Source of the DNA: Sphingomonas sp.
GTDB lineage: Bacteria; Pseudomonadota; Alphaproteobacteria; Sphingomonadales; Sphingomonadaceae
Assembly: GCA_965217805.1 (NCBI GenBank)
Contig: CBDCJJ010000006.1
Coordinates: 269,806 to 333,805, forward strand
Reading direction: 5' to 3'
DNA: 64,000 nt
The position numbers were made by a program, and so were the translations under genes. The notes below the pieces were generated by a model, which searched no databases, was not told the origin of the DNA, and worked only from the letters and a program-made list of their open reading frames with translations. This document shows, piece after piece, positions 1-17,926 of this stretch; the stretch's first letter is position 1; every line of letters begins with the position of its first letter.

Positions 1-174
1 GGCGAGCTGTCAATGTTGGAATACCAGAAAGGGCGCATCCGGGCATTGGAACGGATTTCCCTCGAATTTGCGGCGCATACCTTGGCCATCGACCCAACGA
101 CTCACCGGCTCTACGTTGGCTACCTCAGCCTGTTGCGCGACCCGTGTCTCGCGGTTTTCAGCCCGCGTACCTGA
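1..174 (+). CDS. 3' end of an ORF cut by the window edge; possible beta-propeller repeat protein
   Basis: Frame 1 is open from base 1 to TGA at 172-174. The tail ...[16 protein letters not shown]... resembles YVTN/lactonase-type propeller repeats. Confidence 0.3.
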
Positions 175-206
175 TCGCATCTCGCCACCAAGATTGCCAC
201 CATCGC

Positions 207-332
207 ATCACGCTCAAAGAGGCTCGCGTCAACGCCGCCATCGAGGCCGCACGCGCAGGAGACGCCGGCAGGGGCTTTACAGTCGTTGCCAATGAGGTGA
301 GGCAGCTTGCCGGACAGGCCGCGGAGGCGACG
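207..332 (+). pseudogene. Methyl-accepting chemotaxis protein signalling-domain fragment
   Basis: Translation [43 protein letters not shown] matches the highly conserved MCP hairpin motif ([27 protein letters not shown]). No complete ORF surrounds it. Confidence 0.5.
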
Positions 333-343
333 GCGCACGTTCG

Positions 344-452
344 CGCCGACCCCAAGGTCGTCCTCGATCTGCCGCTTGGTCCGGCCGCTGGTTCCCACCA
401 GCCGTACTGCCTCGTCCTCAAATTCCTTCGTAAATCGATTCTGCTTCGTCAT
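344..452 (-). pseudogene. IS3-family transposase OrfA, N-terminal fragment
   Basis: [36 protein letters not shown] is a typical IS3 OrfA helix-turn-helix N-terminus. The reading frame then runs into antisense of the MCP fragment. Confidence 0.6.
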
Positions 453-508
453 CGGGTTCGCCTTTCATCTCAAGGGAACTCTCCACTTTTCCGAAGCAAG
501 TCCACTAC

Positions 509-730
509 ATCGCGCCGGGCAAGCCGACGCAGAACGGGCTCGGCGGGAGCTTCAATGGTCGCATGCGCGACGAACTGCTCAACGAGACGCTGTTCTTCAC
601 AATTGGTCAGGCCCGCTCGATCCTCGCGAGATTAGTCGACGACTACAACAACGAGCGGCCGCACTCCTCGCTCGATTATGCCACCCCGGCGGCATTCGCT
701 GCCGATCTCGAACAGCAACGGGTGGGTTAA
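509..730 (+). pseudogene. IS3-family transposase OrfB, C-terminal fragment
   Basis: Translation [64 protein letters not shown], stop TAA at 728-730. This is the classic C-terminus of the rve integrase core, and no N-terminal part is present. Confidence 0.75.
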
Positions 731-798
731 CCCCGCCCGTTGCCTCACCCGCGCTCATGCGGGACAACACCGATCGGTCTCTGGTCGCCGCTGGATGA

Positions 799-1080
799 AT
801 GGCGGGGGTCACGTCAGCCGACGGCGGTTATGCTGGGCAGAAGCTCGAAGCTGCGGTCGCGCACATTGATCGGCTGACGATCGAAATCATCAGACGTTCC
901 GACCTGGCGGGCTTCGTTATTCTGCCCCGGCGCTGGGTCGTCGAACGGACCCTGGCGTGGCTGAACCGGTGTCGTCGCCTCGCCAAAGACTGGGAGGTCT
1001 CTATCGCGTCATCCGAAGCGTGGACGGTAGTCTCATCGATATGGCGAATGACGCGCCGTATCGCTAGACTCGAATTATGA
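799..1080 (+). pseudogene. IS5-family (DDE_Tnp_1) transposase, C-terminal fragment
   Basis: ADGGYAG...LPRRWVVERTLAWLNRCRRLAKDWEVSIASSEAW... is the conserved IS5-family C-terminus. An in-frame stop lies immediately upstream (796-798). Confidence 0.7.
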
Positions 1081-1098
1081 GTCGGGCTCTAAAGAGAA

Positions 1099-1467
1099 TT
1101 ATTCCTTTCCATACGATGTATCTAATGTTAGCGTTGGCACTTGGCGTTGCTGAAGCAAAGCTTCGATTTTCGCGGCCGAAATTCCCGCGCTCGCGGCGCC
1201 ACGGACGGCCCGCTCTTTCTGTTGAATTGTGCCATACAGGGCTATAACTAGTATTCGCAACGCCTCCAGATCCGGAGCAGTAAGGGGACGTGGGCCGCGA
1301 TATCCGAAGAACGAGCGAAGCCTGAGCCATCCTTTCGTTGAGCAACCCGCACTCAACCCGTCAAGATGACCTACATGTATAGCCATTCGCTCAGTATCGT
1401 TGAACAACGGAATATTGACAACTGCCTTCGGTAGAAAGCGGGGGGCGAGAGTTTGAGAGCCGAGCAT
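1099..1467 (-). CDS. hypothetical protein (122 aa)
   Basis: ORF in an AT-richer island between IS fragments. Its start lies 2 nt downstream of the stop of the preceding small membrane ORF. No family recognised. Confidence 0.3.
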   Translation of the reverse strand: MLGSQTLAPRFLPKAVVNIPLFNDTERMAIHVGHLDGLSAGCSTKGWLRLRSFFGYRGPRPLTAPDLEALRILVIALYGTIQQKERAVRGAASAGISAAKIEALLQQRQVPTLTLDTSYGKE

Positions 1468-1468
1468 T

Positions 1469-1777
1469 TCAGTGCCGACGATCTTGGTTAGTACTGATCA
1501 TAACTTTTAGCGCGACAAAAAATAGAAATAGAAGGCAGGCTAGCACAAATCCAATAAGTTGAGAGTCGAGGCGAACACCGATCCAGTGACCCACACTGGC
1601 AAAGAGCATCGCGGCACTTAGCCCGGCAATCAGCCTCAAAATGAACAAGCGCAGTGACCAAACCTGCTTTTCAGCTCGACTTCTGTAGCAACTGTCGAGA
1701 TTTTGACACGCAGCGTGGTTCGAAGCGGCTTTGCTCTTGGAAAATTGCCTGCCTGCGTTCTGTGGGCATTTATTCAT
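1469..1777 (-). CDS. hypothetical small membrane protein (102 aa, two hydrophobic helices)
   Basis: Internal ATG of the 1469..2080 ORF, chosen because the upstream part is IS3 pseudogene sequence in another frame. The segments LRLFILRLIAGLSAAMLFASV and LIGFVLACLLFLFFVAL look transmembrane. Confidence 0.3.
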   Translation of the reverse strand: MNKCPQNAGRQFSKSKAASNHAACQNLDSCYRSRAEKQVWSLRLFILRLIAGLSAAMLFASVGHWIGVRLDSQLIGFVLACLLFLFFVALKVMISTNQDRRH

Positions 1778-1919
1778 GGTTATCCTCGATGGAACTCGCC
1801 ATAATTGACTATGGCTTTCACTCAGGTCTGCCGTCAGAACATTGCCAAAGCCTGACGGTGCTTGGTGATTAAGGTTGATCTGAACCGCCCCGGGTCTGCC
1901 GGAGGCCTTGGGTTGTGAG

Positions 1920-2590
1920 TCACGCTGCCATATTGATGTTGTCCGCGGCAGCATAATATTGATCTTCGGCCTTGGCGGGCGGGATGTTGCAGATGGGCTC
2001 CAGCAGCCGACGATAGTTGAACCAGTCGACCCATTCGAGCGTGGCAGACTCGACAGCTTCGAAGCTGCGCCAAGGCCCACGCCTGTGGATCACCTCAGCC
2101 TTTTAGAGACCGCTGATCTCGGCCAAAGCGTCATAGCTGTCGCCGACACTGCCGACCGACGGCTCGATGCCGGCCTCGGCAAGGTGTTCGGTGTATTTTA
2201 TGGACACAAATTGCGCTGCCGCGATCCGAATGATGAATGAGTCCTTCGGGCGGACGTCGTATCGTCAGGGCCTTGCGCAAGGCAGCCAGCGCCAGATCGC
2301 GATGCAGCCGGTCGCCGACGGCCCAGCCGACGACGCGGCGGGAAGACAGATCGATGACCACGGCCAGGTACAGCCATCCCTCCCGCGTGCAGATGTAGGA
2401 GATGTCGACACCCCATTTCTGGTTCGGTGCCGTCGCGGTAAAGTCCTGGTCAATGATGTTGGGCGCGATCGGCCAGCTATGTTCGCTGTCCGTCGTTTCC
2501 TTGAACCGTCGTTTCTGCCTCGCCACCAAGCCGTTCTCACGCATCTGTAGCGCGGCGATCTGGATGAGAAGCACTCGCACTGTGATCGCC
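1920..2590 (-). pseudogene. IS3-family transposase OrfB, 5'-truncated and frameshifted
   Basis: ORF 2131..2580 reads ...MRENGLVARQKRRFKETTDSEHSWPIAPNIIDQDFTATAPNQKWGVDISYICTREGWLYLAVVIDLSSRRVVGWAVGDRLHRDLALAAL...LIHHSDRGS. The protein continues in another frame as AEVIHRRGPWRSFEAVESATLEWVDWFNYRRLLEPICNIPPAKAE to the stop at 1920-1922. Confidence 0.8.
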
Positions 2591-2708
2591 GCGCAGCAAA
2601 CAAGCTGCGTCGCATCGTCACGTCATACTGACGTTTGGCTTCTCCACCCTGATCAACTTTTTAAGCTGGATTGCCGCTTTTGCCATCGGCGCTAAGGTCA
2701 CGGCGACA

Positions 2709-2915
2709 TTGTTCTTGCTGATCGCGAACAAGGACATGCGCGATCAACCCGGATGGGGATCGGCCTTGTGGTGGGTGACCAAGATAACCTCGATCATCGT
2801 GGTTCCCTGTCTCATCTGCGTTGCCCTGCTCCAACGCGATACAGGGTTGGTCTGGTTCTCCTATGCTGCGGGGCTATTCGGTCGTCGCGGTGCTGCTGAA
2901 GATCCGGGAGCATGA
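2709..2915 (+). CDS. hypothetical membrane ORF whose 3' end runs into the IS terminus at 2906
   Basis: 68-aa ORF with a hydrophobic stretch. Its last codons and stop lie inside the IS terminal repeat, so it is probably a truncated gene. Confidence 0.2.
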   Translation: MFLLIANKDMRDQPGWGSALWWVTKITSIIVVPCLICVALLQRDTGLVWFSYAAGLFGRRGAAEDPGA

Positions 2916-2927
2916 AAAAGCTGGGGG
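2906..2927. repeat. Terminal inverted repeat (left end of ISKra4-like unit)
   Basis: GGGAGCATGAAAAAGCTGGGGG. The reverse complement is found at 5760-5781 and 17811-17832. Confidence 0.8.
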
Positions 2928-2929
2928 TC

Positions 2930-4321
2930 TCATGCGGCTACGGCCATCTCGGCTGACGGTGCTTGTCGCTCTTTTCGCCAGCGCTGGAAGTCGCTCTCGA
3001 GCGTCCCGTCGAGGACACGGGTGCGCAGCTGCATGAGGAGGTGGACGCCGCGCGGCGTCCACTGCATCTGCTGCTTTTTAGCGAACCGCTTGGCGATCAC
3101 CTGGTTGACGGTGGACTCGACGAACGCGGTCGAGACCACCTCGCCGTAGCGGCGGCGCTCGGCGTAGTTCGGGATCAGCCCGGCGTTGTTGGTGACATAG
3201 CCGCTGAACTCGTCCAGCTGGCGCCGGAACTTCCTCACCCCGGGCGGCGGGTGATCGAGGAGGTCAACCGCGTCGCCGAGATCCTCTGCGAGGCCGAGCG
3301 CGCGGCCGACGTTGCCATGCCACACGAAGCGCCGGACGCTTTCGAGCGCCTCGACCATCGCAGTCGTCGCCTCGCTCAGCGGCGGCGGCAGTCCGCGCGC
3401 CATCTGCTGGAGCACGGTCACGCGCATGGCGACATGAAAATAGTCGAGCACGTGGTCGGCATTCGGGCGCATATAGAGCTGGAGATCGCGCACGCTCTCG
3501 CCACCGTCGGACATGAACGTGATCTCCTGGTTCATGGCAACGCCTTGCGCGACTAGCAGTTCGTGCAGCCGTCGCTTGGGCTTGGCGTCGTGCCCGACCA
3601 CGAACCCGAACCGGCGTGCCGGCCTGTCCTCGGGAACCGACTTGCCCACGATCACCTCGAAATTGGCGGGCCGGTCGGCCCAGCTGCGCACATAGCCCCC
3701 GTCAATGCCGACCGTGACCGGCGGACCGGGGATCGGCATCTCGTCCCACTCGGCCTGGCAGCCGGACGCGAACATCGCCTGCTCGGGGCCGAATTCGGCT
3801 TCAAGCCGCTCGGCGACGCGGGTGACGTCGTTCCTGATCGTGGACGCGTTCACGGTGTCGCCGATCGGCAGCACCTCGGCGAGTAGCGCCGCGGTCACGC
3901 CATAGGCGGCGAGCGACGCCCAGCGCGCCTCGAGCGCGAGCAGGTCCGGGGTTATGCGCTCGGGCAACGCCGCCACGATCGGAGCGGCGACACCGGGCGC
4001 GACCTCGCACCGGCAGCGCGCGAAGCGCGGGCTCGGCAGCGCCAGCTTGCCGAACGGCGTCCGCACCGCGATTGTGCGATAATCCTTCACCCGACGGGGC
4101 CGGTGGCAGCACGGGCAAGGCCGCTCGCGCTCCGCGAGGGTGGCGGCCTGCACACGAGCCATGCTCGCCTGCAGGTTGGCGAGCACCGCCTTTGAATCCG
4201 CGAGCGTCAACCCAAGATCATCGATCGAGAGGCCGTTGTCCGGCCGCTCGATCGCCGCGACCATGCTGGGAGCTTGGGTGCCATCGCCGGTGTAGGCGAC
4301 GAGTTGAACGACGAAGCGCAT
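2930..4321 (-). CDS. ISKra4-family transposase (463 aa)
   Basis: MRFVVQLVAYTGDGT...LGLTLADSKAVLANLQ...CPCCHRPRRVKDYRTIAVRTPFGKLALPSPRFARCRC...LEARWASLAAYG matches my recollection of the ISKra4-type transposase N-terminal architecture. It is identical to 16417..17808. The 731-aa ORF on the track is a read-through artefact. Confidence 0.75.
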   Translation of the reverse strand: MRFVVQLVAYTGDGTQAPSMVAAIERPDNGLSIDDLGLTLADSKAVLANLQASMARVQAATLAERERPCPCCHRPRRVKDYRTIAVRTPFGKLALPSPRFARCRCEVAPGVAAPIVAALPERITPDLLALEARWASLAAYGVTAALLAEVLPIGDTVNASTIRNDVTRVAERLEAEFGPEQAMFASGCQAEWDEMPIPGPPVTVGIDGGYVRSWADRPANFEVIVGKSVPEDRPARRFGFVVGHDAKPKRRLHELLVAQGVAMNQEITFMSDGGESVRDLQLYMRPNADHVLDYFHVAMRVTVLQQMARGLPPPLSEATTAMVEALESVRRFVWHGNVGRALGLAEDLGDAVDLLDHPPPGVRKFRRQLDEFSGYVTNNAGLIPNYAERRRYGEVVSTAFVESTVNQVIAKRFAKKQQMQWTPRGVHLLMQLRTRVLDGTLESDFQRWRKERQAPSAEMAVAA

Positions 4322-4375
4322 GACGGATCTCCCGTTGTGCCCCCACCGGATGATGGAATCACGATGCGGCGCGCT

Positions 4376-4401
4376 TGTCGAGAAACACCTGAATATCGCG
4401 C
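4376..4401. other. Candidate serine-recombinase crossover site (hix/res-like, 12-2-12)
   Basis: TGTCGAGAAACA-CC-TGAATATCGCGC(A) lies 110 bp upstream of the recombinase gene. A related half-site, CGACAAAC, is at 4451-4458. The partner site in copy 2 (14672-14686 plus 16348-16362) reconstructs to TGTCGAGAAACA-CC-TGTTTGTCGTCA, with 10 of 12 arm positions symmetric. Confidence 0.35.
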
Positions 4402-4510
4402 ACGTCCGGCGACCACGGCCGAACGCCCCGTGAGCGCCGCGATTTCTGCGCGACAAACCCGGCCGGAATGCTAAGTAGCGCGGATACTCTCCTCCGCAGG
4501 TTTTCCGCAC

Positions 4511-5182
4511 ATGCTCGTCGGCTACATGCGCGTCTCCTCCGCCGACGACCGGCAATCGACCGATCTCCAGCGCGACGCGCTGGTCGCCGCCGGGATCGAT
4601 CCGCGTCATATTCACCAGGATCGCGCCTCGGGTGCCCGCGACAACCGGGCCGGGCTGAAGGCCTGCCTCGACTACCTCGCCGCGGGCGACGTGCTCGTCG
4701 TCTGGAAACTCGACCGGCTCGGCCGCTCGCTCTCGCATCTGCTCGGCATCGTCGCGGAACTGAAGGAGCGCAGAGTGGCGTTCCGGTCTCTCACCGAAGC
4801 GATGGACACCACTACCGCGCAAGGCGAACTCCTGTTCTCGGTATTCGGCGCGCTCGCCCAATATGAGCGCGCGCTGATCCAGGAGCGGGTCAAGGCGGGT
4901 CTCGCCGCCGCCAAGCGTCGCGGTCGCCAGGGCGGGCGTCCGCCGGCCGTTAGCTCCGAGGGCGTCGAACAGATCGTGGCGGCGCTCGATGCGGGTGCCA
5001 GCAAGGCGAGCGTCTGCCGCACGTTCAAGGTCGCGCGCTCCACGCTCGGCGACACGCCGCGACGCGCCGGCTGGACCGGTCCCGCGGTGAACGACCCGCC
5101 GAAGGCAACGGTCAGTTCTCGGCATGCGCGTCCGCGTCCGCCCACTCGCGCTTCAGCTCGGCGTTCACCTCCCGCCGGCTGA
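4511..5182 (+). CDS. Serine recombinase (Hin/Gin invertase / resolvase family)
   Basis: MLVGYMRVSSADDRQSTDLQRDAL...VLVVWKLDRLGRS...ALAQYERALIQERVKAGL...GRQGGRP plus a C-terminal HTH. The catalytic Ser is in the YMRVSS motif. An unusual tail of about 30 aa overlaps the convergent gene. Confidence 0.9.
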   Translation: MLVGYMRVSSADDRQSTDLQRDALVAAGIDPRHIHQDRASGARDNRAGLKACLDYLAAGDVLVVWKLDRLGRSLSHLLGIVAELKERRVAFRSLTEAMDTTTAQGELLFSVFGALAQYERALIQERVKAGLAAAKRRGRQGGRPPAVSSEGVEQIVAALDAGASKASVCRTFKVARSTLGDTPRRAGWTGPAVNDPPKATVSSRHARPRPPTRASARRSPPAG

Positions 5183-5729
5183 AGCGCTCGGGATCGAAGG
5201 CGGCGATGAGGTCGTCATCATCGAGGTCATCATCCTCTTCACGATCCGTTCTGTCGAGCAGCCGGTCGATGTCGCGGAAGCGCAGCCGGTCGAGAAGCGC
5301 ATGGTAGCCGGCGGGTCCGCCGACATCCTCGGGTGGCCCGGCGCGCGATCCGGCGATGCAGGACGGGTACGCCTTGCCCTGATCGCGCTCGCGCCTGGTC
5401 TCGACGCGGACCTCGTGCTCCCACAAATCGCCGAAATCGTACTCGTAAAGGACCTTCTGGCGCAGGCGCAGCTCAAGATCGGCGAGCGCGACCTCACGGC
5501 CATCCTCATGGCGGTGACGCTCGCCCGTCCACATCGTGCCGTAGCGGCGGCCGTGCAGCTTGAACGCGTGCAGGTGATAGTCCTCCCACCCGAACGCGAT
5601 CTGGATGGCGCGGTGCAGGCCATACAGGGTAAGGTCGGCGGGCACGAGCAGTCGCCGCCAGATCATCGGTGAAATGTCACGCAGGCTCACCTTCAACTGG
5701 TAAACGGTGTCGGCCGCCGCGTTGAACAT
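5112..5729 (-). CDS. pRiA4b ORF-3-like family protein (PF07929-type)
   Basis: VYQLKVSLRDISPMIWRRLLVPADLTLYGLHRAIQIAFGWEDYHLHAF is the signature N-terminus of this family. The C-terminus is acidic. Confidence 0.8.
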   Translation of the reverse strand: MFNAAADTVYQLKVSLRDISPMIWRRLLVPADLTLYGLHRAIQIAFGWEDYHLHAFKLHGRRYGTMWTGERHRHEDGREVALADLELRLRQKVLYEYDFGDLWEHEVRVETRRERDQGKAYPSCIAGSRAGPPEDVGGPAGYHALLDRLRFRDIDRLLDRTDREEDDDLDDDDLIAAFDPERFSRREVNAELKREWADADAHAEN

Positions 5730-5759
5730 GCGCGGAAGCCTACTGCAAGGGCTCGGACT

Positions 5760-5781
5760 CCCCCAGCTTTTTCATGCTCCC
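5760..5781. repeat. Terminal inverted repeat (right end of ISKra4-like unit)
   Basis: CCCCCAGCTTTTTCATGCTCCC, a perfect reverse complement of 2906-2927. Confidence 0.8.
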
Positions 5782-6003
5782 CCGTGCCCGCCTGCGATGG
5801 AATGCTATCTCCGATACGATCATAACGCCTCCGGCGCGGCATATTAATTGTTCGATCGCGTCAGCTCTATAATCGGGATTAATAGAGGATGATCCAAGCT
5901 TCGGGGGCCCCGGATCGACTTGGTGCCAAAGCGCGAATTCTGCCTCAGCGGATACATGTTACCCGCCACCAGGATCCAGACGGGCGGGATAGCGTTTTGG
6001 GCG

Positions 6004-14563: not shown

Positions 14564-14686
14564 TGCAGCTCCGGGCCGAGACGTCCAACATAATTGGGGT
14601 TCGGCATTTATGGGGCTCCGTGGGAGATTCTTCAGTCGTGTACGCTAAGCGGTTTTGGTGGCGCTAGAGAGTGACGACAAACAGGT

Positions 14687-16347
14687 CAGACCGTCCGAAA
14701 ACTCCGGGATGGCCATGCTTTAGGCGTGCGGCTGGCCTGGAGGGCGCGTGAGGCAGGATTTTTGGATTGGACCGCTCATCGGCGGGTCAAATCCCTCACA
14801 TTGGGCATCTTCATCGCGATATTCTCTTGAGAAAGGATGTCCGGCCTTTTCAGGCTTGCACGGCGCGTAGCAGGGCCGGAATGCCGAGGATGTTGATGGC
14901 TCGCCGCAGGTTGTAGGCGAGCGCTGTCAGGCTGAACTCGGCGTTGACGTTGGCGAGCCCGCGCATGAGGAACGCACCCTGGTTCATCCACTGCTTGATT
15001 GAGCCGAAGGGATGCTCGACCATCTCGCGTCGCTTGTCGAGGATATCGGGCCGCGCGACAAGTCGTTCGGCCATTCGTTCAAGCACCGCCTCGTTTTCCC
15101 AGCGATCAATACTTCGCCGGGAGCCTGAAGTGCATTGCGGCTTAAGGGAGCAGGTTTAGCAGGCCCGCATATTGGTATAGCGGATGGAGATATGCTCGTC
15201 CTTGCGGGTGCGGGTATAGGGATCAAGGCGATCACCACTCGGGCAGACGTAACAGTCGGCCTCCGGGTCGTAGCATAACTCGGTTCTGTTGAAATAGCCG
15301 CTTGCAACCGCCGAGCCGCGTTGCGGCCGCGCGACATAGGGCACGACGCCGATAATCTCGCAGGCGGCAATATCCTCACCCTTGTAGTAGCCCTTGTCAG
15401 CGACTGCATCGATACGTTCGACGCCCAGCACCTCACGCGCGGCACCGGCTGTCTGGGCCAGGAATCCAAGGTCGCTGCCCGAATTGGTGACGTTCTGCTC
15501 GACGATCAGCTTGTATCGGGCATCGACCGCGACCTGTGCGTTGTAGCCCACCCCGACCTTGGGGTGCATCGCAATCCCCCGGGCATCAGGGTCGGTAAGT
15601 GACAGCTGGCTTTCGCCGCTGGCGACCAGTTCGGTGAGCATCGCCTGGTGCAGCTCACGCCGTTTTCGCACCCGCGCGAGCTTCGCCTCGAGCGTGGCCG
15701 CACGGCGCGCCGCGCCTTGCGCCTCGATTTCCGCGCGGTCGGCCCGATCGAGCCGTCCCAAATACTCTTCGATCCGCTCGTCGGCGAGCTTGATCCATCC
15801 GGCCAGCTTTTGCTGCGTGAAGTTGCGTTTGCGGCTGTTCACCGCCTTGAGGCGCGTGCCGTCCACGGCAATCAGTTCCCGCCCGAACAGATCGAGCTTG
15901 CGGCACAGCAGCACGAAGGCGCGAAACAGCGGCTTGAATGCTGCCCGGTTCACGCGCCGAAAATCCGCGATCGTGCAAAAGTCGGGACGCAGGCCGCCCA
16001 GCAGCCAGATCACTTCGAGATTGCGCCCGGCTTCCGCCGCCAGGCATCGGCTTGAGCGGACCCTATTGAGATAGCCATAGAGATAAAGCTTCAGCAGATC
16101 CGCGGGATCGTAGCCGGGTCGGCCCGTCGCCTTTGGGCGAAAGCGGTCAAAGCTCAGTTCCCCCAGATCCAGATCGTCGACAAAGGCCGCGATGAAACGC
16201 ACCGCGTTGTCTGCCGCCACATAGTCATCGACCGAGGCTGGCAGCAGCAGCATTTGATCGCGCGATTGACGTTGGATGTAGCCCATGCCCGATCATACCG
16301 GATACGAAACCTGACGGGAATCCATCAGGCAGTTTTCGGACGGTCTG
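14687..16347 (-). mobile_element. IS1182-family insertion sequence (1,661 bp)
   Basis: Terminal inverted repeats CAGACCGTCCGAAAACT (14687-14703) and the reverse complement at 16331-16347. Flanked by AGGT at 14683-14686 and 16348-16351. Confidence 0.85.
14850..16286 (-). pseudogene. IS1182-family transposase with one in-frame TAA
   Basis: ORFs 15156..16286 and 14850..15086 are in the same frame, separated by TAA at 15156-15158 (...YTNMRAC*TCSLKPQCTSGSRRSIDRWENEAVLERM...). The combined length of about 478 codons fits IS1182 transposases. Confidence 0.85.
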
Positions 16348-16416
16348 AGGTGTTTCTCGACAAGCGCGCCGCATCGTGATTCCATCATCCGGTGGGGGCA
16401 CAACGGGAGATCCGTC

Positions 16417-17808
16417 ATGCGCTTCGTCGTTCAACTCGTCGCCTACACCGGCGATGGCACCCAAGCTCCCAGCATGGTCGCGGCGATCGAGCGGCCGGAC
16501 AACGGCCTCTCGATCGATGATCTTGGGTTGACGCTCGCGGATTCAAAGGCGGTGCTCGCCAACCTGCAGGCGAGCATGGCTCGTGTGCAGGCCGCCACCC
16601 TCGCGGAGCGCGAGCGGCCTTGCCCGTGCTGCCACCGGCCCCGTCGGGTGAAGGATTATCGCACAATCGCGGTGCGGACGCCGTTCGGCAAGCTGGCGCT
16701 GCCGAGCCCGCGCTTCGCGCGCTGCCGGTGCGAGGTCGCGCCCGGTGTCGCCGCTCCGATCGTGGCGGCGTTGCCCGAGCGCATAACCCCGGACCTGCTC
16801 GCGCTCGAGGCGCGCTGGGCGTCGCTCGCCGCCTATGGCGTGACCGCGGCGCTACTCGCCGAGGTGCTGCCGATCGGCGACACCGTGAACGCGTCCACGA
16901 TCAGGAACGACGTCACCCGCGTCGCCGAGCGGCTTGAAGCCGAATTCGGCCCCGAGCAGGCGATGTTCGCGTCCGGCTGCCAGGCCGAGTGGGACGAGAT
17001 GCCGATCCCCGGTCCGCCGGTCACGGTCGGCATTGACGGGGGCTATGTGCGCAGCTGGGCCGACCGGCCCGCCAATTTCGAGGTGATCGTGGGCAAGTCG
17101 GTTCCCGAGGACAGGCCGGCACGCCGGTTCGGGTTCGTGGTCGGGCACGACGCCAAGCCCAAGCGACGGCTGCACGAACTGCTAGTCGCGCAAGGCGTTG
17201 CCATGAACCAGGAGATCACGTTCATGTCCGACGGTGGCGAGAGCGTGCGCGATCTCCAGCTCTATATGCGCCCGAATGCCGACCACGTGCTCGACTATTT
17301 TCATGTCGCCATGCGCGTGACCGTGCTCCAGCAGATGGCGCGCGGACTGCCGCCGCCGCTGAGCGAGGCGACGACTGCGATGGTCGAGGCGCTCGAAAGC
17401 GTCCGGCGCTTCGTGTGGCATGGCAACGTCGGCCGCGCGCTCGGCCTCGCAGAGGATCTCGGCGACGCGGTTGACCTCCTCGATCACCCGCCGCCCGGGG
17501 TGAGGAAGTTCCGGCGCCAGCTGGACGAGTTCAGCGGCTATGTCACCAACAACGCCGGGCTGATCCCGAACTACGCCGAGCGCCGCCGCTACGGCGAGGT
17601 GGTCTCGACCGCGTTCGTCGAGTCCACCGTCAACCAGGTGATCGCCAAGCGGTTCGCTAAAAAGCAGCAGATGCAGTGGACGCCGCGCGGCGTCCACCTC
17701 CTCATGCAGCTGCGCACCCGTGTCCTCGACGGGACGCTCGAGAGCGACTTCCAGCGCTGGCGAAAAGAGCGACAAGCACCGTCAGCCGAGATGGCCGTAG
17801 CCGCATGA
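16417..17808 (+). CDS. ISKra4-family transposase (second, identical copy)
   Basis: 463 aa, identical to 2930..4321. Confidence 0.75.
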   Translation: MRFVVQLVAYTGDGTQAPSMVAAIERPDNGLSIDDLGLTLADSKAVLANLQASMARVQAATLAERERPCPCCHRPRRVKDYRTIAVRTPFGKLALPSPRFARCRCEVAPGVAAPIVAALPERITPDLLALEARWASLAAYGVTAALLAEVLPIGDTVNASTIRNDVTRVAERLEAEFGPEQAMFASGCQAEWDEMPIPGPPVTVGIDGGYVRSWADRPANFEVIVGKSVPEDRPARRFGFVVGHDAKPKRRLHELLVAQGVAMNQEITFMSDGGESVRDLQLYMRPNADHVLDYFHVAMRVTVLQQMARGLPPPLSEATTAMVEALESVRRFVWHGNVGRALGLAEDLGDAVDLLDHPPPGVRKFRRQLDEFSGYVTNNAGLIPNYAERRRYGEVVSTAFVESTVNQVIAKRFAKKQQMQWTPRGVHLLMQLRTRVLDGTLESDFQRWRKERQAPSAEMAVAA

Positions 17809-17810
17809 GA

Positions 17811-17832
17811 CCCCCAGCTTTTTCATGCTCCC
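17811..17832. repeat. Terminal inverted repeat (outer end of second, partial IS copy)
   Basis: CCCCCAGCTTTTTCATGCTCCC, identical to 5760-5781. Confidence 0.8.
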
Positions 17833-17926
17833 TTTTGCAACAGAGCCCATCGACGCTACCCGGATTGTATTACAAAACAGGGGCGCCCCAGTCTTGTGAT
17901 CCGTTCCCATTTGGCTCGGATGCACC

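Follow-up and report, generated by a model that had tools for sequence, protein, structure and literature searches.

A res region within an ISKra4-family element and a probable resolvase-made hybrid of its crossover site in a Sphingomonas-like genome

The ISKra4-family element and its half copy

The window (the whole 64,000-nucleotide stretch of Sphingomonas sp. DNA that was analysed) contains one complete element of the ISKra4 family, designated copy 1, and part of another in inverted orientation, designated copy 2. On the plus strand, the complete element has the order IRR, transposase, res, recombinase, PRiA4_ORF3, IRL. Copy 2 adjoins an IS1182-family element, on the far side of which lies a short half-site that is foreign to the ISKra4-family element. 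The features of both loci are as follows.

2906-5781, minus strand: complete ISKra4-family (ISAzba1-group, p-MULT4) element of 2,876 bp with perfect 22-bp terminal inverted repeats
2906-2927, plus strand: terminal inverted repeat IRR, GGGAGCATGAAAAAGCTGGGGG (22-bp match)
2930-4321, minus strand: transposase of 463 aa (NCBIfam NF033572, ISKra4 family, 321 bits, cut-off 205)
4376-4401, plus strand: predicted res subsite I (crossover site), TGTCGAGAAACA-CC-TGAATATCGCGC, with a 12-2-12 layout, assigned by positional homology to other site I sequences
4402-4510, plus strand: predicted accessory part of res, with a conserved block at approximately 4441-4475 in an alignment of related res regions
4511-5182, plus strand: small serine recombinase, TnpR-like (Pfam Resolvase, 147 bits, and HTH_7)
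5112-5729, minus strand: PRiA4_ORF3-like accessory gene (Pfam PF07929, 176.6 bits)
5760-5781, minus strand: terminal inverted repeat IRL (exact 22-bp match)
14672-14686, plus strand: foreign half-site TGACGACAAACA (14672-14683), central GG (14684-14685) and a T
14687-16347, minus strand: IS1182-family element of 1,661 bp with inverted repeats (NCBIfam NF033551, 275.9 bits)
16348-17832, plus strand: half element (copy 2), comprising the left half of site I (16351-16362), the transposase gene (16417-17808) and IRR (17811-17832)

The limits of the element are set by its terminal repeat, which is found three times in the window (at 2906, 5760 and 17811; 0 expected). The outer end of both copies (…CCCCCAGCTTTTTCATGCTCCC) is a real terminus: five contexts diverge directly outside it. 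The left terminus is confirmed by the related sequence L204, which shares 4421-5782 with the window at 98.8% identity and diverges immediately after 5781. Because the third terminal repeat lies at 5760-5781, copy 1 is part of the larger element 2906-5781, and the sequence that it shares with copy 2 is not a whole IS. The type of the element is indicated by the PF07929 and Resolvase genes, both located between the terminal repeats, and the transposase is predicted to be a Mutator-type DDE enzyme of the ISKra4 family. The original prediction had described two IS copies with a recombinase gene beside them; the repeated sequence is instead the transposase half of the 2,876-bp element, and both the recombinase gene and the recombination site are internal to that element. 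Its natural termini are 2906 and 5781, not a position within 4376-4401.

When all pairings of the window flanks were compared, a target-site duplication was absent from both the complete element and the half element, which is consistent with later rearrangement. Exact-protein look-ups with the window transposase and recombinase returned no record, and neither the repeat nor the GH3 flank yielded informative matches in plasmid megablast searches.

Relatives with the same terminal repeats have the arrangement IRL-PRiA4-(recombinase)-tnp-IRR and are 2,084-2,964 bp in length. A two-gene form (IRL-PRiA4-tnp-IRR, 2,084-2,166 bp) is found in Mesorhizobium and Allomesorhizobium genomes, and a three-gene form with a divergent recombinase gene (2,964 bp) is found in sphingomonads. 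A PRiA4 homologue lies upstream of the transposase gene on the same strand in 45 of the 58 relatives surveyed, and a recombinase gene lies between PRiA4 and tnp in 17 of the 58; in an ISKpn19-like enterobacterial element, PRiA4 and the transposase gene are accompanied by a co-oriented recombinase gene. Target duplications are about 9 bp in the relatives L011 and L012 (9 bp in L011, ATCAATATG; 7-8 bp in L012). Compared with L011, a sphingomonad three-gene element, the window proteins are 37% (recombinase), 63% (transposase) and 55% (PRiA4) identical. L233 is an element of the window type, with a recombinase that is 84% identical, a convergent PRiA4 gene and 75% DNA identity. One sphingomonad copy (L010, 2955-2985) shows a tandem duplication of the terminal-repeat tip at its right end (CTCATGCTCCC CCTCATGCTCCCC). 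The architecture of this group, with a pRiA4_Orf3-like gene and, in some members, a serine recombinase, has already been published (Guerillot et al. 2014, PMC3942029), and it was proposed that this recombinase resolves cointegrates (PMC3942029).

The inverted repeat and its end point

In a whole-window repeat comparison, 2906-4390 and 16348-17832 form an inverted repeat of 1,485 nt that is 100% complementary, with the 463-aa ISKra4-family transposase encoded in each copy. The half element is without the left terminal repeat, the PRiA4_ORF3 gene and the recombinase gene, and the inner end of the repeat, at the copy junction at 4390, has no matching terminal repeat. In copy 1, this end point falls in the sequence TGTCGAGAAACA (4376-4387)-CC (4388-4389)-TGAATATCGCGC (4390-4401), upstream of the recombinase ATG at 4511. 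In copy 2, the IS1182-family element is flanked by AGGT at 14683-14686 and 16348-16351, a 4-bp target duplication, and removal of this element and one AGGT gives TGACGACAAACA-GG-TGTTTCTCGACA. On the opposite strand, the rebuilt site reads TGTCGAGAAACA-CC-TGTTTGTCGTCA, a 12-2-12 sequence with 10 of 12 arm positions symmetric. Identity between the rebuilt copy 2 and copy 1 extends one base further, to the G at 4391, which is 2 nt beyond the central CC.

The probability of symmetry at 10 or more of 12 positions at a fixed location is approximately 3.8e-5 (computed here, assuming equal base frequencies). Within the 64 kb of the window, the motif TGWCGNNAAACA of the half-sites is found three times, each time at these junctions (0.12 expected). 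The original prediction had claimed that the two copies are identical, that their identity breaks at the centre of a dyad, that a symmetric 12-2-12 site reappears once IS1182 and one AGGT are removed and that the arms share a motif. All of these sequence observations are correct (the copies agree over 1,485 nt in pairwise comparison, the break lies 1-2 nt past the central dinucleotide and the motif is restricted to the three junction arms in the window), and chance is excluded.

Several further features of the copy 2 locus were observed. The dyad of the rebuilt 26-bp site falls exactly at the centre of the AGGT duplication, which suggests that the IS1182-family element may prefer palindromic or recombinase-bound targets. 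Position 15158 is one of seven SNPs between this element and its counterpart in the assembly L001 (discussed below) and appears to change a Gln codon to a stop; such a stop would account for a transposase ORF of 376 aa in the window versus 478 aa in L001. At 17834-17847, 1 nt outside the IRR of the half element, there is a lone 14-nt IS6100 terminal inverted repeat (GGCTCTGTTGCAAA, minus strand), the sequence of which was confirmed in PMC4478539; the IS6100 body is absent, and no second such terminal repeat is present in the window.

The recombinase and its res region

The recombinase aligns over its full length with the TnpR proteins P0130, P0146 and P0161, with TnpR homology ending at approximately 5077. 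It has thousands of close homologues and is 78-81% identical to TnpR proteins encoded directly upstream of Tn3-family tnpA genes. P0130 (80% identical, annotated in Sphingomonadales) is encoded 4 nt upstream of a Tn3-family tnpA (DUF4158 and DDE_Tnp_Tn3), an arrangement observed in 10 of 10 contexts examined (one contig is without a downstream gene call), and P0146 shows the same tnpR-tnpA arrangement in those contexts for which domains were called. As judged from this gene order, the closest homologues serve as transposon resolvases. With respect to characterized enzymes, the recombinase scores higher against the Gin invertase (170.7 bits, in an alignment of 176 residues with approximately half of the positions identical and the GGRPP arm included) than against gamma-delta resolvase (87 bits), which fits the 26-bp hix-like geometry of the site; its score against the NCBIfam invertase model is 54.7 bits versus a cut-off of 272. 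The recombinase ORF has no stop codon at the usual position: it is approximately 35 codons longer and overlaps the convergent PRiA4_ORF3 gene by 71 nt (5112-5182). P0121 and P0122 carry the same extension, indicating that it is a feature of the lineage.

The regions upstream of the P0130, P0146 and P0161 genes align colinearly with 4376-4510. The sites homologous to 4376-4401 are TGACGGAAAACA-CC-TGTTTGCCGACA (L215), TGACGGGAAACA-CC-TGATTGCCGTCG (L225) and ..ACA-CA-TGTTTGCCGACA (L205-L211), and the distance from the site centre to the ATG is 123 nt in the window, 124 nt in L205, 125 nt in L215 and 123 nt in L225. The accessory part includes an invariant CGCGACAAACCC at 4449-4460 and a conserved GGTTTTCCGCAC just before the ATG. 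The additional half-site that the original prediction had read as an accessory subsite, CGACAAAC at 4451-4458, is present and lies in the conserved accessory block, in a stretch that is invariant across five related res regions; the limits of the individual subsites II and III within 4402-4510 are putative.

Four homologous res regions are colinear with the window over site I and the conserved accessory block, but the window deviates from the consensus in the right half of site I and in one accessory motif. The right half, TGAATATCGCGC, agrees with the family consensus at 5 of 12 positions, and the accessory motif is GGCCGG in the window and TGTCGG in the relatives; the poor right half and the changed motif may weaken the window res. 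In L233, the left half-site is identical to TGTCGAGAAACA at 12 of 12 positions and the right half-site is irregular, as it is in the window, and the irregular recombinase-proximal half may thus be either a trait of the lineage or a sign of decay.

Comparison of different contexts of the same module shows that identity breaks at the site centre in L205, L206, L207 and L211 as well as in the window. The P0130 transposon was compared in four contexts: these are identical solely from …CA-CA-TGTTTGCCGACA toward tnpR, with a different left partner each time (TGCCGAGAAACA, TGTCGGAAAACA, TGTCGTCAATCA and one non-consensus sequence). The break in these Tn3-family contexts is of the same kind and at the same position as that in the window. 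In addition, L204, L227 and L228 contain Tn5053-like tni insertions approximately 30-35 nt away from the site centre (31 nt in L204, at the equivalent of 4420/4421), and Tn5053/Tn402-like tni elements are known to target res sites, for which they have been called 'res hunters' (PMC7765201). The tni modules (L204, 2132-5910; L227 and L228, 1-1400) encode TniA, with a Mu-transpos_C domain, and TniB, with an additional resolvase gene in L204; they sit in the res of a window-type recombinase gene (L204, inside an ISKra4-type element) and of P0161-type recombinase genes.

Taken together, the colinearity, the equal centre-to-ATG distance, the mosaic breakpoints and the res-hunter insertions bear out the proposal that the adjacent recombinase gene has a res-type region and that the 26-bp sequence is its crossover site: by homology, 4376-4401 is assigned as res site I and 4402-4510 as the accessory part. 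The point at which identity between the two copies ends is best read as the crossover point of site I, and thus as the footprint of site-specific recombination.

Equivalent sites can be recognized in more distant members of the group. L011 has a palindrome, TGACCGTAACCG-GT-CGGTTTCGGACG, in the equivalent position, 53 nt before the tnp ATG, and L020 has a positionally equivalent 12-2-12 palindrome that adjoins the PRiA4 gene, the module being reversed. The recombinases of these two elements (L011, 1732-2500; L020, 330-1050) are 70% identical and are encoded in opposite orientations between PRiA4 and tnp. In both elements, the 12-2-12 site occupies the module end distal to the recombinase gene, and two-gene relatives are without the module. 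A metagenome scan with the pattern GTGTTTCTCGACARGSSC gave 120 matches, none of which (0/120) had the transposase leader downstream, indicating that these are chance matches.

Two other relatives, L002 and L003, resemble independent breakpoints at the same nucleotide but, on the evidence of their junctions, are not counted as separate events. L003 (85% identity) has a window-like irregular right half and remnants of the recombinase gene, and it probably keeps a window-type junction with internal deletions. The junction of L002 resembles that of L003 and is ambiguous as a breakpoint. On the non-conserved side of the site centre, L002 (750-770, TGAAGCTGTTGCAAAGTGCTCCGG) and L206 (approximately 2410-2440, TGGGGCTGTTGAAAAATGCGCCGC) agree at about 18 of 24 positions; both flanks resemble IS6-family terminal repeats, and the agreement could reflect common descent, an IS6 remnant or chance.

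The low recombinase identity to L011 (37%, versus 63% for the transposase and 55% for PRiA4) points to an exchange of the res-recombinase module with Tn3-family transposons. Flank homology gives no direct support for such a swap: a blastn comparison of the left flanks of the Tn3-family sites with ISKra4-type elements found no match.

Origin of copy 2

Three things are observed directly: how the element is built, that its res is homologous to those of Tn3-family transposons and that identity breaks at the centre of site I. The interpretation that we favour builds on them. At a probability of roughly 0.68, 4376-4510 is an IS-internal res with site I at 4376-4401, and copy 2 is a hybrid of site I and a secondary site that was split by IS1182, with the repeats kept identical and flipped by homologous recombination. 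For copy 2 itself, a hybrid made by the resolvase with a secondary site and later split by IS1182 is the most likely origin; a res-mediated hybrid was one of the alternatives offered in the original prediction and is the best reading of this locus.

The events leading to copy 2 may be pictured in four steps. The element would transpose replicatively, and its recombinase would exchange strands at the central CC with a 2-bp stagger, thereby resolving cointegrates. Transposition would first have made a second full copy; this prior transposition is assumed because conservative recombination cannot duplicate 1,485 bp. The recombinase would then have carried out an exchange between site I of the second copy and a secondary site (the TGTTTGTCGTCA half-site) downstream of the GH3 gene. 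Acting as a deletion, this exchange would have discarded the recombinase half and joined the crossover-to-IRR half (16348-17832) to foreign DNA. In the third step, the IS1182-family element would have inserted on the dyad of the hybrid site, with AGGT symmetric about its centre, and in the fourth, the 1,485-bp repeats would have been homogenised, and flipped, by homologous recombination.

Several observations support the hybrid, among them the 10-of-12 symmetry of the rebuilt site and the restriction of the half-site motif to the three junctions. The independent assembly L001, which is 99.6% identical to the window, contains the same hybrid junction, split by IS1182 at the same place; the junction is therefore real and older than the split between the strains. 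The DNA past the foreign half-site is unrelated to res: when the copy 2 flank was treated as a decayed res, local alignments to four res regions were no better than shuffles. The foreign half-site itself matches the recombinase-proximal half-site of the family, TGTTTGCCGACA, at 10 of 12 positions, and the central CC is common to both. Against this reading, resolvases normally require accessory sites on both partners, and the partner of copy 2 shows none. The deviations of the window res from the consensus and the missing target duplication of the element also count against the favoured interpretation. We infer the exchange itself, as neither an empty secondary site nor a reciprocal product was found; the search for an empty site by way of the GH3 protein failed because its closest homologue other than itself shares 77% identity, which is too low for intergenic regions to be compared.

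L001 also bears on the later history of the repeats. There are five SNPs between L001 and the window in the 1,485 nt and none between the two copies in the window, which indicates gene conversion. As the original prediction had suggested, relatives were searched for both orientations of the segment between the sites, and L001 has the opposite arrangement: the half-element IRR is followed by the reverse complement of window positions 2373-1, with 2374-2905 missing. This order is the one expected if the segment between the copies had been inverted, and the difference between L001 and window positions 1-2905 looks like an inversion plus an IS-adjacent deletion. At this junction (L001, 4770-7142), IRR is joined to window position 2373, which falls within a remnant of an IS3-family transposase that runs on without a break in the window. 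As the site is split by IS1182 in L001 and the window alike, the flip is explained more economically by homologous recombination between the inverted repeats than by site recombination. Some 15 kb of this Sphingomonas-like genome would record a transposition, a site-specific exchange, an IS1182 insertion and a large inversion.

An alternative origin for copy 2, which we consider unlikely, is that it is a deletion derivative. In this scenario, copy 2 would originally have carried res, recombinase, PRiA4 and IRL beyond a complete and canonical site I (TGTCGAGAAACA-CC-TGTTTGTCGTCA), and a later deletion, possibly IS-mediated, would have taken everything outside the 12-nt half-site; the crossover would then have occurred in the copy 1 lineage. 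The rebuilt copy 2 site does match the family consensus much better than the copy 1 site, and the region is crowded with IS remnants (IS1182, the IS6100 terminal repeat and an IS3 fragment). However, it would take chance for a deletion to end exactly at the outer edge of the half-site. Moreover, the copy-1-type junction is old, as the left half and an irregular right half are shared by L233 (75% DNA identity) and probably by L003 (85%); since copy 2 is 100% identical to copy 1, it is the junction of copy 2 that is recent.

Less probable still is a Hin- or Gin-like system in which the recombinase flips a programmed invertible segment, approximately 10.3 kb long and bounded by the two sites. The inverted 26-bp 12-2-12 sites, the closer alignment of the recombinase with Gin than with gamma-delta resolvase and the opposite arrangement of the flanks in L001 would all fit such a segment. 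However, the 78-81% identical homologues occupy the TnpR position and have approximately 125 bp of conserved accessory sequence upstream, and the recombinase falls well below the cut-off of the NCBIfam invertase model. The copy 2 site is already split by IS1182 in both assemblies, so the flip is younger than this split, and the 1,485-bp homology accounts for it better. Because the same IS half would lie on both sides in either isomer, no gene or promoter is switched. The original prediction had suggested that the intervening segment could once have been invertible; a programmed hix-type switch is not supported, and the partner in copy 2 has neither accessory sites nor a recombinase gene.

We give equally little credence to the idea that the IS1182-family element made the breakpoint, by adjacent deletion or by recombination between IS1182 copies, and that the palindrome is coincidental. 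This element does lie exactly at the copy 2 boundary, but its intact 4-bp AGGT duplication is that of a simple insertion, and the far flank has a consensus half-site (P of approximately 4e-5; three motif matches in 64 kb). The symmetry of the insertion on the dyad also implies that the palindrome was there first. Finally, although blastn homology to the window element stops in L002 and L003 no more than 2 nt from this point and the right end at 2906/17832 is a true terminus, the notion that the break is the natural left terminus of a 1.5-kb IS, with the palindrome reflecting the target choice of that IS, is refuted by the real left repeat 1.4 kb further on (5760-5781), by the left repeats of two- and three-gene relatives, which lie beyond PRiA4_ORF3, and by the colinearity of the site with res site I of Tn3-family transposons.

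Comparison with known systems

The present analysis assigns, by sequence, a concrete res site with a crossover position to a serine recombinase of the ISKra4/ISAzba1 type, for which a role in cointegrate resolution had previously just been suggested. The res-recombinase module of the window is nearly the same as that of alphaproteobacterial Tn3-family transposons. For annotation, genes labelled 'ISKra4 family transposase' are often part of multi-gene elements of 2-3 kb, and repeat boundaries within such elements can be footprints of recombination sites rather than IS ends.

More speculatively, ISKra4/ISAzba1-type ISs and Tn3-family transposons might share a pool of Gin-like resolvases with 26-bp site I sequences, with crossovers at site I swapping halves between the families and onto chromosomal secondary sites. 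We regard this broader proposal as tentative. If it were true, such exchanges would give rise to chimeric elements and to orphan transposase halves, of which 16348-17832 would be one, and the occurrence of the recombinase module between PRiA4 and tnp in either orientation, or its absence, would be a trace of them.

The window element resembles other ISAzba1-group/ISKra4 elements in its ISKra4-model transposase, its terminal repeats of approximately 22 bp and its pRiA4_Orf3-like gene upstream of tnp, and in the serine recombinase that some of them carry. It differs from this group in having a recombinase and a res whose type is otherwise known from Tn3-family transposons (approximately 80% identity to TnpR), and from the relatives L011 and L012 in being without a target duplication.

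The similarities to the res-tnpR modules of Tn3-family transposons extend to a predicted res that occupies approximately 125 bp upstream of the gene and has its putative crossover subsite at the distal end, to identity breaks at the site centre in different contexts and to the attraction of Tn5053-family res hunters. Unlike these modules, that of the window is partnered with an ISKra4-family Mutator-type DDE transposase and has no adjacent TnpA (DDE_Tnp_Tn3), and, unlike in the Tn3-family mosaics, one of the recombination partners appears to be a lone secondary site. Site I of gamma-delta and Tn3 is 28 bp, whereas that of the window is 26 bp (12-2-12).

The latter geometry is shared with Hin/Gin and their hix/gix sites, as is the A-tract beside a 2-bp non-palindromic core. 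In contrast to Hin and Gin, the nearest homologues of the window recombinase are transposon resolvases, conserved accessory sequence lies upstream of the gene and no switched gene is apparent. All components of the locus are of known kinds, namely recombinase-bearing ISAzba1/ISKra4 elements and res-mediated mosaics, and the locus is therefore a well-documented example of these rather than a new system.
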